DNA from: an uncultured Verrucomicrobiota bacterium
Lineage (GTDB): Bacteria; Verrucomicrobiota; Kiritimatiellia; RFP12; UBA1067
DNA length: 64,000 bases
Assembly: GCA_946544115.1 (NCBI GenBank)
Contig: CAMNLW010000001.1
Span: forward strand, 16,392-80,391
Direction of reading: 5' to 3'
Both the position numbers and the translations under genes were made by a program. Below are positions 31,488 through 44,897 of this stretch, one piece after another. The notes below the pieces were generated by a model. That model made no database searches. It saw nothing but the letters and a program-made list of their open reading frames with translations, and was not told the origin of the DNA. How positions within the stretch are numbered: position 1 is the stretch's first letter; each line of letters begins with the position of its first letter.

Positions 31488-34400
31488 ATGACGAATCTGA
31501 AAAAAACCGCCGCCGTCAGCGTGGCCGCTGCCGTCATTGCCTGCGTACCGTTTGCGTTCGCACAAGACGACCTGGATGACTTGCTGAAAGATCTCGAAAG
31601 CGATCTTGCAGCCGAAACCGCCCCGGCGGAGGCCGTCGCGCCTGCGACAGTTGAAGAGCCTGTCGCCGAGGAACCAACGGCTGAGGAGCCTGTCGCTGAA
31701 GAGCCTGCCGCCGTGGAGCCAGTCGCCGACGAACCTGCACAGGAAGAACCCGCTGCCGAAGAACCCGCGGTCGAGGAACCTGCGCAGGAAGAACCTGCGG
31801 TCGAGGAGCCTGCAACGGAAGAGCCTGCTGTCGTCGCGCCTGCCGCTGAAGAACCGGTTGCGGTTGAACCGGCTGCCGAGGAGCCTGCCGTCGAAGAGCC
31901 TGCTGCGGCCGAACCCGAGCCTGCAGTTGTTGATGCAGGCCCTGTGGCTGTCGCGCCTGTTCCTGCGCCTGCGGCTGCGCCTGTCGATCCCGACGCCGAG
32001 CTTCTGGACAATCTGCGCACTACGGAGCGTCTGCGCCGCGAAGCATATGATGAACAGGCAAAGCGTGAAATCGTTGCTGCCCGCAAGAGCATGTCCGAGG
32101 GCGCTTATGATGACGCCACGCGCGCCTATGGCAATGCGCTCAAGCTTCTCAATGACAGTCCGGCGACCAAGGATCTCCGCCGCGAGTGCGAGCAGGGTAT
32201 TGCCGAGGGGCAGTACCGCCAGGCTCTCGAGGAGGAGCGTCTCGGGCGGCGCGAGAATGCCGTTGAGATGATGGAGAAAGCCAAGGCCCTGCGTCATCCC
32301 AAGGCCCGTCGCCAGCTTGAGGCCTGGAACAAGACGACCGACCCGAACGCCAACAAGACGGCGATCTCCGATGTCCGCCACCGCCGTAACGATGCGGACT
32401 ACAAGGCGCAGCGCGAGAAGAACCGCCGCCACCTGAGGCGCGCGCGCCAGCTCCTGTCGGTAAGGGATATCGACAAGGCTCTTGACGAGTGCGAGCTCGT
32501 GCTTGTGAACGACCCCTACAACCAGGAAGCGATTCGTCTAAGGGGCGCAATCCAGAAGAAGCGCGCGTTGATTCTCAATCAAGAGTTCAATGTGACGCGC
32601 GACGCCATGATCGCCGATGTCGACAAGGCGTGGCGGCCGGTGTATGCGCCAAACGCGCGCCAGCTCGAGGAGTCGGCTTCGTCTACGCTCAAGCGCTCGG
32701 TCGGCGACGATCCCGAGCGTTCGGTGGAACAGTCTATCATCCAGCGCATGAAGGAGATCGTCCTTCCCACGATTTCGTTCAAGCCGCCGGCGACGATTAT
32801 TCAGGCGATTGAAACATTCCGCACCTATTCAAAGGACTTCGACCGCCCCGACATTCCGCTTGAAGAGCGCGGTTTCAACTTTGTCGTGAAGATGCCCGAC
32901 GCGCTTCTTTCCAAAACATCGGAGCAGAGCGCCGACGACTCCGACGATTTCTCGTCGACCGGCGACGAGACCGATTCCAGCCAGGCGGGAGTGCCTATAA
33001 TACCGATGATCACGGCCAACGCCATCAGCTTCTACGACGCGCTCAAGCTTGTGTGCGATTCGGTCGACTACAAGTTCCAGGTAAAGGGGCCTGTCGTAAT
33101 GGTCATGCACAAGGATCAGGCGATCGACGAGATGATCACGCGCCAGTATCCTGTAATGGCCGCCTTCATGGAGAAGATGGATACCGTCTCCAACGATGTA
33201 AAGGAGATGGGGCTCGGCTTCGGCGGCGGCAGGTCCAACAGTCGCGGCGGCGACAGCGAGGAGGAGAACAAGGAGCAGGATTGGAAGGGCGTCTTCTCGG
33301 CTCTTGGTGTCCAGTGGCCCGAAGGCAGCACGATCTTCTATATGAAGGCGACGGGCAAGCTGTATGTCAAGAATACAGAGGAAAACCTTGCCGAACTTGA
33401 AAAGGCGCTTATCGCGCTCAACGCCGAACAGAAGCTTATCGAGATCGAGGCGCGCTTTGTCGAGGTTAGCCAGCAAGACCTCAACTCCCTCGGCTTTGAG
33501 TGGATACTGAACAGCAACTACACCCTCGGCAGCGGCGGCTGGCTCGGTCGCAAGCTCGGCATGAAGAAGGGCGGTTGGGGCGAAGGCTATAAAGCGCAGA
33601 CGCAGCCGATTCCGGTCAAAAACGCAGATGGTACTATTAGTAGTGTTGACACCACAACCTATACTGGCGACGGCAACACCTCGTGGCGCAAGACCGGGCT
33701 TGTCAACGGCACGCCTACGCGTCTTAACAGCGGTATTGCGGGTATTAACTCGATGGGCGGCGAGAACGCCACGTTCGGCGACGTGAACCGCTATCTCTCG
33801 CGCACGGGCAATGCCGTTTCGGGGCAGGACCAGTCGTCCAACGACCAGTTCATGAAGGTGAACGCGTTCCTCGGCTCGGCCGATCTCTCGATGATTCTCC
33901 ATATGCTTTCGCAGCGCACCGACACGGATCTCCTTTCCGCGCCGAAGGTGCTCACGCGCCCGGGTGAGAACGCGGTCATCAAGGTCGTCACCGAGTACAT
34001 CTACCCGACAGACTACAATGTGCAGCTGCAGTCCAGCTCGTCCTCGGGATCCAGTTCGAACGGCGGCAGCCAGTCGGCGATTCTTGCCGTGGTCGAGCCG
34101 GAGCAGTTCGAAACGCGCGAAGTCGGCGTAATCCTCGATGTAACCCCGACGCTCACGGATGACGGCAACTTGATCGACCTCAAGCTTGATACGAAGGTCG
34201 TCGACGAGCCTACATGGAAGAACTACGGTATGAAGATTCCGTATTCCGGCAACAGTTCGTCGCTGCAGAGCTTCGAGGGTATCGGCGAAATCTTCTCGTC
34301 GCTGGCTGAGTTGATCACTGATGTCGGTGGTGAGCTTACGACCAGCACGCGCCAGATGATTGTCGACAACGCTACAAGTTCTGCAATCAGCGCCATGGAT

Positions 34401-44673: not shown

Positions 44674-44682
44674 ATTCTATCA
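44674..44682 (-). promoter_or_regulatory. candidate extended -10 (TGaTAGAAT) for nth, predicting a leaderless mRNA
   Basis: The minus strand reads ATTATGATAGAATacttccATG, so only 6 nt separate the -10 from the nth ATG. Confidence 0.45.
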
Positions 44683-44699: not shown

Positions 44700-44863
44700 T
44701 AAAGTCCGGGCGAGACTTGCGCAAAGTCTGGGCAAGACTTGGGCAAAGTCTGGGCAAGACTTGGGCAAAGTCTGGGCAAGACTTGGGCAAAGTCTGGGCA
44801 AGACTTGGGCATAAGTCAGGCAGGCTTAGGGTGAAACCCAGGCAGGACTTGGCTAAAGTGCAG
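44700..44863. repeat. tandem 22-bp repeat made of alternating 11-bp half-units, forming phased overlapping palindromes
   Basis: Four perfect copies of GCAAAGTCTGGGCAAGACTTGG at 44721-44808, with degenerate copies at about 44700-44720 and 44809-44863. The cores AAGTCT and AGACTT are reverse complements spaced by GGGCA. Confidence 0.9.
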
Positions 44864-44888
44864 CCGAGAGCCGAGTTCGGACGATTTT

Positions 44889-44897
44889 TGGTATAAT
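44889..44897 (+). promoter_or_regulatory. candidate extended -10 (TGgTATAAT) for rmuC, predicting a leaderless or near-leaderless mRNA
   Basis: TTTTTGGTATAATagaggcgtATG: 8 nt separate the -10 from the ATG. Confidence 0.5.

Follow-up and report, generated by a model that had tools for sequence, protein, structure and literature searches.

What does a strictly regular tandem array do in the short space between two divergent genes, one for a DNA glycosylase and one for an RmuC-family protein? The question arises in the window analysed here, a 64,000-nucleotide stretch lying on contig C1 of a metagenome-assembled genome (MAG) of an uncultured Kiritimatiellae bacterium, where positions 44700-44861 are filled by seven 22-bp units set head to tail between an nth-like gene and rmuC. 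An earlier interpretation, made from the letters alone (hereafter the sequence-only reading), had regarded this array as a possible cooperative operator for a dimeric regulator of repair genes, as a structure-prone element, or as a variable-number repeat. Here, I show that arrays of the same kind are scattered over the whole genome and that this one differs in length among strains; the explanation to which I give a probability of about 0.62 is that it represents one locus of a genome-wide, nearly species-restricted, non-coding 22-bp interspersed minisatellite, comparable in kind to the MIRU (mycobacterial interspersed repetitive unit), BrickBuilt and BOX repeats.

As for the array itself, much of its first description is borne out by the sequence and by Tandem Repeats Finder (TRF): GCAAAGTCTGGGCAAGACTTGG is repeated perfectly four times at 44721-44808, decayed copies flank these on both sides, and the motifs AAGTCT and AGACTT within each unit are reverse complements. 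The 11-bp half-period proposed at the same time has to be given up; TRF finds a period of 22 (5.3 copies, 95% matches, 44701-44817) and period 11 is weak (73% matches, 15% indels), so that the true period is 22 bp. Nor is the array an artefact of assembly, a doubt that had been voiced with the original description, since seven independent metagenome contigs hold it at the nth-rmuC locus; an identical nth protein adjoins it in independent assemblies. The array ends 17 bp from the predicted extended -10 element of nth and 27 bp from that of rmuC.

The MAG (2.28 Mb in 161 contigs, 61% GC, 79% complete) is broken up at repeats. With up to 3 mismatches allowed, the 22-mer has 101 matches in it, against 0 for the reversed control, and clustering of the 11-nt core yields 30 arrays on 28 contigs, comprising 144 units (2 to 8 per array) at a spacing of strictly 22 bp, with no indels. 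Solitary cores are at chance level (38 observed, 36.6 expected), and therefore the family, termed here family A, exists only as arrays; inverted-pair or solitary copies were not seen in the MAG, direct tandem arrays being the only form. All 30 arrays are intergenic and none lies within a convincing gene. Gene context derives in part from a crude open reading frame (ORF) caller based on GC content at third codon positions (GC3), which missed some genes, and the few ORF calls that overlap arrays, including one long ORF on contig C16, look spurious. The genes adjoining arrays are heterogeneous, encompassing transport and envelope functions (HlyD, MFS, LicD, LD-carboxypeptidase, SBF), metabolism (UbiA, a NuoE-like ferredoxin, DHDPS, superoxide dismutase (SOD), PurN, flavin reductase-rubredoxin, the PFK operon) and regulators (an AraC-type regulator and a LuxR-type response regulator). 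DNA-repair neighbours occur at the window locus only, the other 29 arrays standing beside genes unrelated to repair; a genome search for the motif at further repair genes, as suggested by the sequence-only reading, thus came out against a repair-specific element. A sister unit type, A', forms arrays at 8 loci, and 8 arrays start with A' units. Contig ends often fall inside arrays; contigs C82 and C32, for instance, join via a 10-unit array in another assembly.

Two further families were observed in the same genome. Family B (AAAATACCTAATACTTTTGATCA, 23 bp) forms about 14 arrays, e.g. at C3:3891-4034 and C59:12184-12362, and family C (AAAAGGTCWGACCTTTT plus a 5-nt linker, 22 bp) about 12, e.g. 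at C3:46017-46161 and C48:16359-16484. Their units, like the palindromic form of family A, consist of a 17/18-nt quasi-palindrome followed by a 5-nt linker, a common geometry which hints at a shared generating mechanism.

Over its 144 units family A has the consensus GGGCAAGACTT-NNN-CAAAG-NN-T. Positions 1-11 (GGGCAAGACTT), 16-19 (AAAG) and 22 (T) are conserved at 87% or more, most of them at 94% or more; positions 12-14 and 20-21 are near-free (0.14-0.9 bits) and differ even between neighbouring units of a single array. At positions 20-21, where TC is needed for pairing with the core, TC was counted in 45 units, CT in 42, CG in 34 and TG in 18. The AAGTCT/AGACTT inverted pair is kept in 38 of the 144 units and is missing from the other 74%, and no compensating core change was found among the 144. 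With only 26% of units retaining the pair, the palindrome is a local variant: dyad symmetry is a feature of the one unit variant that fills the window array, the family unit being a direct repeat. The conserved blocks themselves suggest recognition by some protein. That the window array is structure-prone, as had been proposed, stands: as single-stranded DNA it is strongly hairpin-prone (z -6.3 in one computation, -7.9 in another) and it is the most hairpin-prone array of the family, its fold z of -7.9 comparing with a family median of -3.0, while z lies above -2 in 8 of the 28 arrays folded.

The behaviour of the locus among strains could be followed on metagenome contigs. The contig collection has 55 index blocks in which a protein identical to RmuC is found; of the contigs, 22 were read, and 10 are among the matches listed. 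Sheep-rumen samples are among those that contain the species, two of the assemblies met here being SAMN02144230 and SAMN02144231. Seven contigs with the identical RmuC beside nth all carry the array, one of them matching the window at 98.6% identity over 7.2 kb. Between nth and rmuC the gap measures 238, 260 or 282 bp, corresponding to 7, 8 or 9 units, and the 8 sequences compared hold 6 distinct alleles. Both the GGGCAAGACTT block and the AGGCAGG block change in unit number, the free positions vary between alleles (GGGCAAAG, GGGTAAAG, CAGGAAAG, TGGTAAAG), and unit variants are shuffled. Because the 7-, 8- and 9-unit alleles differ by strain, the nth-rmuC array is a true variable-number tandem repeat (VNTR), one of the possibilities anticipated from the sequence. 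On four further contigs (L046-L049), an identical RmuC with an identical -10 is preceded by unrelated DNA rich in GGGGGTAG...CTACCCCC hairpins (family D), which replaces nth and the array; the breakpoint lies at about window position 44880, homology to the window starting at GACGATTTTTGGTATAAT (also given as GACGATTTTTGG), 8 bp before the rmuC extended -10. Since these four contigs hold the identical protein and -10 with no array, the array is not needed to keep rmuC and its promoter.

Two other loci illustrate extremes of persistence. Upstream of a 97-aa membrane protein and the PFK operon, an array is present in all 10 contigs sampled, built of 1-5 A' units and 3-7 A units (4 to 12 overall), with a fixed junction on the promoter side and a variable distal side, where some strains have an IS110-family insertion (IS, insertion sequence) directly after GGGGACAGG. 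On contigs L073, L074, L077 and L079, the IS110-family transposase element was seen just past the array tail, the junction reading GGGGACAGG-TATAATG. At the response-regulator locus, this genome has a 5-unit array downstream of the gene, and none of 9 other contigs with an identical regulator has one; these nine display four different downstream arrangements, and in 7 the junction falls inside R1, a GC-rich hairpin which also serves as an array tail (see below). Because R1 contains or adjoins the cassette junctions at this locus, recombination breakpoints are marked by repeat modules. Past the identical LuxR-type regulator, different gene cassettes were seen by strain (an MBL-fold gene, GH35, VWA and others) when C139:2866-3100 was compared with contigs L061-L070. 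Arrays are therefore long-lived at some loci and polymorphic at others, and their distal ends are hot spots of rearrangement.

The taxonomic distribution of the family is narrow. Of 116 other species of the genus, one showed the two-unit pattern, which was not found in 16 genomes of other families of the order; the family-A pattern had no match in viral contigs, which speaks against a phage origin. The sole positive congener, the MAG 'Verrucomicrobia bacterium UBA3750' (G049), has a single 4-unit array with different flanks. A 139-bp non-coding module adjoins this array, the only family-A array of UBA3750 (L019:201-339, contig DFGM01000104.1), and is 95% identical to C106:285-423 of the present genome (G000), the coding DNA of the two species being only about 75-80% identical. 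Such an excess of identity in the module over coding DNA suggests that repeat modules moved horizontally between both species recently.

The flanking genes and their predicted -10 elements, as first called, agree with Pfam and the sequence, and are given with the parts of the array in Table 1. Of the rmuC-type extended -10, TGGTATAAT, the genome has 269 copies (the reversed control has 9), 121 of them with an ATG 4-9 nt downstream; an extended -10 placed directly ahead of the start codon is, as far as such predictions go, the norm of the species. The nth and rmuC mRNAs are probably leaderless, because their predicted promoters conform to this norm, and leaderless mRNAs seem to be widespread in this Kiritimatiellae genus. 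Orthologues of nth in nine congeners (78-86% amino-acid identity) have the same extended -10 a few nt before the ATG, paired in some cases with a divergent promoter in back-to-back arrangement at 50-100 bp, and no tandem array is present at the nth promoter in any of the nine. Along the same line, rmuC orthologues examined in other species have no array, and nth and rmuC are not adjacent there. Given that the nine congener nth promoters are without it, the array may be regarded as a lineage-specific addition to a promoter region that works in its absence.

Table 1. Features of the nth-rmuC region in window coordinates (aa, amino acids).
Feature	Position	Strand	Remarks
nth-like gene, HhH-GPD / endonuclease III-type DNA glycosylase, 242 aa	43939..44667	-	Pfam HhH-GPD 1.3e-21, HHH 3e-09
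predicted extended -10 of nth, TGATAGAAT	44674..44682	-	6 nt before ATG
partial terminal unit TAAAGTCC	44700-44707	+	same in all strains compared
unit 1 GGGCGAGACTTGCGCAAAGTCT	44708-44729	+	family register
block of five family-A units	44708-44817	+	unit number and unit variants differ among strains
three perfect units GGGCAAGACTTGGGCAAAGTCT	44730-44795	+	family register
unit 5 GGGCAAGACTTGGGCATAAGTC	44796-44817	+	family register
two decayed AGGCAGG-type units, sister type A' (AGGCAGGCTTAGGGTGAAACCC, AGGCAGGACTTGGCTAAAGTGC)	44818-44861	+	2 to 4 units in other strains
predicted extended -10 of rmuC, TGGTATAAT	44889..44897	+	8 nt before ATG
rmuC, RmuC-family protein, 409 aa	44906..46135	+	Pfam RmuC 1.4e-56

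Elsewhere in the window, positions 31653-31903 hold about 17 copies of an in-phase tandem repeat of 15/30/45 bp (GAAGAGCCTGCCGCC-type), which probably codes for a stretch rich in Pro, Ala and Glu.

The arrays are not placed at random with respect to strand. The GGGCAAGACTT strand is the strand of negative flanking GC skew in 26 of 30 arrays (binomial p = 6e-5) and is opposite to the majority gene strand in 24, and all 8 A' arrays share the polarity of the A arrays. Gene strand and GC skew are tightly coupled over the contigs (Spearman rho 0.82), which makes replication-linked and transcription-linked polarity inseparable here. In skew, the window array belongs to the four exceptions; its orientation is the usual one relative to nth, a gene of the minority strand. 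The strand bias of genes is very strong in this genome: in the 20 kb around the window array, for example, one strand carries 20.2 kb of coding sequence and the opposite strand 0.7 kb. A conserved tail accompanies 12 of the 30 arrays (about 40%), either the GC hairpin R1 (GGACGGCCGCCCGCTCGTCC, on 7) or R2 (GGGGACAGGCACTAGT, on 5), always at the same array end and on the same strand. The R2 motif, of which the genome has 36 copies and the control 0, may represent a target or an end of IS110. An outward extended -10 lies within 140 bp on the left side of 12 arrays, at a distance of 18 to 83 bp with no helical phasing (Rayleigh p 0.25), and on the right side of 4; 14 arrays have no such element on either side.

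How are these observations best accounted for? With some 30 strain-variable copies scattered between unrelated genes, the array is to be classed with generic intergenic repeats, not with control sites for repair. The interspersed minisatellite favoured above would have entered the short back-to-back nth/rmuC promoter region in this lineage, would change in length through replication slippage or unequal recombination, and would be maintained as DNA that is selfish or near-neutral; the invariant blocks of the unit (TGGGCAAGACTT and AAAG) would reflect recognition by a protein that copies or binds it. Judging from the predictions, the array would at most alter how two self-sufficient and probably leaderless promoters of the extended -10 type are spaced and what DNA lies upstream of them. 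Several points weigh against this explanation. Neither a mobilising enzyme nor terminal inverted repeats (TIRs), a target-site duplication or a clean empty site was found; array-less loci in other strains also differ in a neighbouring gene (at rmuC and at the response regulator), and the aligned array flanks have no TIRs or shared leader, the tails being one-sided with no inverted match at the other end. Moreover, variation packed into 5 of 22 positions is not the product of plain slippage and random mutation, and therefore the other 17 must be constrained, by host function or by a propagating enzyme. The polarity of the arrays and their frequent location just upstream of leaderless promoters (12/30) would fit a functional element as well.

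It is from these last observations that the main open rival draws its strength, namely that the arrays are binding platforms for a global sequence-specific protein, with one protomer per 22 bp, head to tail along one helical face, and an architectural, insulator or promoter-upstream role. A near-invariant 12-nt and a near-invariant 5-nt block separated by 5 positions free even between neighbours, a strict 22-bp period free of indels, a polarity of 26/30, the 12 of 30 arrays situated upstream of an outward extended -10, at 18-83 bp and on the same side, and the retention of the PFK-operon array in all 10 strains sampled are what such a platform would lead one to expect. I nevertheless hold it to be unlikely, if the least so among the competitors: the family was found in only 1 of 116 congeneric species despite the same promoter type there, the distance to the -10 is unphased (Rayleigh p 0.25), such a promoter is missing beside 14 arrays, the rmuC and response-regulator loci can do without an array, and no candidate protein was identified. 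A bolder version, in which the arrays are a polar chromosomal element used by the host, a putative protein binding one conserved 12+5-nt site per two helical turns at insulator or architectural sites between gene ends and leaderless promoters, oriented to replication or transcription, and serving families A, B and C with one machinery, is doubtful in a higher degree. Mobility offers a different source for the polarity. IS200/IS605-type enzymes reportedly transpose by way of the lagging-strand template, and the orientation of the arrays relative to GC skew and gene strand is the one such a process gives; the unit could then be an element like the repetitive extragenic palindromes (REPs) and bacterial interspersed mosaic elements (BIMEs), moved as a single-stranded hairpin by a Y1 transposase (HUH, RAYT/IS200-type), with most units decayed. 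The palindromic unit is indeed a 17-nt hairpin with a 5-nt linker, families B and C share this geometry, and the only two Y1 transposase genes of the MAG have a family-C-like hairpin, AAAGGGTCTGACCCTTT, next to them. Yet 74% of the units are unable to form the hairpin and show no compensatory change, the two Y1_Tnp genes are both on contig C31, which has no family-A motif, solitary or inverted-pair copies are wanting, and no GTAG-type tag was seen, for which reasons mobilisation of this kind is improbable.

Could the number of units matter locally? A contingency-type VNTR, tuning the divergent nth and rmuC promoters in 22-bp steps of two helical turns, would agree with the 7-, 8- and 9-unit alleles and has a precedent in VNTR3239 and fpg1 of M. 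tuberculosis (PMC2734929); I consider it quite improbable, for both predicted extended -10 promoters need no upstream element and are kept in other strains and species whose upstream DNA is unrelated, loci with unrelated genes vary in length in the same way, and two-turn steps preserve rotational phase, so that only a small effect is to be expected. Action at the RNA level, as transcribed 3' or 5' untranslated repeats, a small RNA or a protein sponge influencing mRNA stability, is slightly less probable still. It could explain the polarity relative to gene direction (24 of 30 arrays) and the usual layout, in which the array comes after the end of the upstream gene together with the GC-rich hairpin R1, and BOX and REP elements do act on RNA (PMC3049150); it is opposed by an Rfam search with no match above noise, by weak folding in many arrays (z above -2 in 8/28 folded), and by the position of the window array between two divergent promoters, so that it is probably transcribed from neither. 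An operator array through which a dimeric regulator would control DNA-repair genes in particular, the first option of the sequence-only reading, is effectively excluded. Perfect local dyad symmetry and an array filling the divergent promoter region made it attractive, but the roughly 30 arrays stand beside unrelated genes throughout the genome, the dyad is not conserved (it is missing in 74% of units), the orthologous nth promoters of nine congeners have no array, rmuC is kept by strains with unrelated upstream DNA, and there is no helical phasing. That reading had itself named a scatter of REP-like intergenic copies with no promoter association as evidence to the contrary; a generic intergenic repeat is largely what was found, in the form of 30 dispersed arrays.

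A number of other identities were considered and rejected. The array is not CRISPR, as had been stated from the start, for its units abut with no spacers. A coding repeat is contradicted by a 22-bp unit and alleles differing by 22 bp, which keep no reading frame, ORFs across the array being spurious. For plasmid iterons or a parC-type centromere, about 30 chromosomal arrays beside housekeeping genes are too many. A polar motif like KOPS or Chi was entertained because GGGCAGGA resembles GGGNAGGG; its G-rich strand coincides, however, with the strand of negative skew, and copies come in clusters, not dispersed singly. G-quadruplexes would require GGG tracts every 11 nt, which exist only in the GGG-variant units (33/144), loops elsewhere being 19 nt, and a CsrA-type sponge fails since the GGA motif is present in the minority GGGCAGGACTT units only. 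A known RNA family is not apparent either, Rfam (E up to 1) having returned only sub-threshold animal miRNA hairpins (36 bits, the gathering score being 80). Fixed promoter geometry is incompatible with an unphased distance of 18-83 bp from array to -10. With regard to possible parents, the single DDE_Tnp_1 gene (IS4/5-like, on contig C49) of this 79% complete MAG belongs to an element with an unrelated TIR, CACCCTTATCCCGGA, no IS110 gene was found in the MAG at that completeness, and a link to Y1 transposases breaks down on contig C31 as described above.

For annotation, these results remove the tempting interpretation as a repair-gene operator and put on record a repeat family that is easy to recognise and had not been described, belonging to an uncultured Kiritimatiellae species of the rumen. 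Short-read assemblies break at the arrays, inside which several contig ends lie, and the arrays would be ready VNTR markers for telling strains of the species apart in metagenomes. The bimodal conservation of the unit, its two-turn period and the strand polarity go beyond slippage alone and point to a specific protein partner; should the polar, host-used element outlined above prove true, it would add to the Planctomycetes-Verrucomicrobia-Chlamydiae (PVC) group a class of bacterial chromatin or insulator element not described before. If copy number did tune nth, the case would parallel that of fpg1 in M. tuberculosis.

Among known systems, REPs and BIMEs resemble family A in being high-copy and intergenic, in forming mosaic clusters with other short modules, in their orientation bias, and in a hairpin geometry matched by the palindromic unit form. 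Membership fails on three counts, the hairpin, the linkage to a REP-associated tyrosine transposase (RAYT) and the organisation as singlets or inverted pairs: REPs of E. coli and Pseudomonas are conserved hairpins, single or in inverted pairs next to a RAYT gene, whereas here 74% of units have no hairpin, the arrangement is strictly direct and tandem, and no Y1 gene is associated. MITEs (miniature inverted-repeat transposable elements) are likewise short, multi-copy and intergenic, as family A is; no TIRs and no parent transposon with matching ends were found. BOX elements have boxA and boxC as their defined ends, contain a boxB of 45 bp and form extensive secondary structure. In Streptococcus pneumoniae they are abundant, in a sister species sparse, and elsewhere in the genus absent, and they have been read as parasitic, with transposition interpreted as slow (Croucher et al. 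2011, PMC3049150). Family A is similarly a modular non-coding interspersed repeat with a tandem middle module, abundant in one species and near-absent in its relatives; it differs in having only one end module and in the weak folding of most units.

MIRUs are often found inside operons, in the orientation of the genes, and contain small ORFs. Mycobacterium tuberculosis H37Rv has 41 MIRU-VNTR loci, of which 12 are polymorphic (PMC2734929, PMC5056196), and at VNTR3239, upstream of the glycosylase gene fpg1, repeat length correlated with the fpg1 mRNA level (PMC2734929). Shared with family A are direct tandem repeats with no obligatory palindrome, tens of intergenic loci with a subset polymorphic in copy number, and one locus just upstream of a base-excision glycosylase gene in each system. 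Their units measure 40-100 bp, those of family A 22 bp, which is not a multiple of 3 and is non-coding; the two have no sequence relationship and belong to different phyla, so that the analogy is one of kind only. BrickBuilt of Porphyromonas gingivalis, in turn, is a minisatellite-bearing MITE and consists of 23-nt units with no spacers, in 19 intergenic copies restricted to the species, having conserved and variable sites, leader and tail subunits, IS5-like TIRs of 12 nt, and measured promoter activity (Klein et al. 2015, PMC4596501). The correspondence with family A extends to spacerless tandem units (23 nt there, 22 nt here), intergenic placement near coding sequences, restriction to a species, variable unit number, copies per genome (about 19 and about 30), conserved and non-conserved sites within the unit, and a flanking tail subunit. 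BrickBuilt differs by its leader and its IS5-family-like 12-nt TIRs, neither of which was found here, where a tail occurs on only 12 of 30 arrays and the only DDE insertion sequence has unrelated ends. To sum up, family A is best filed as an interspersed minisatellite, or VNTR, with direct tandem arrays at many loci and copy number varying among strains, for which, by analogy, BrickBuilt appears to be the closest known system in anatomy and the MIRU-VNTR loci the closest in behaviour.

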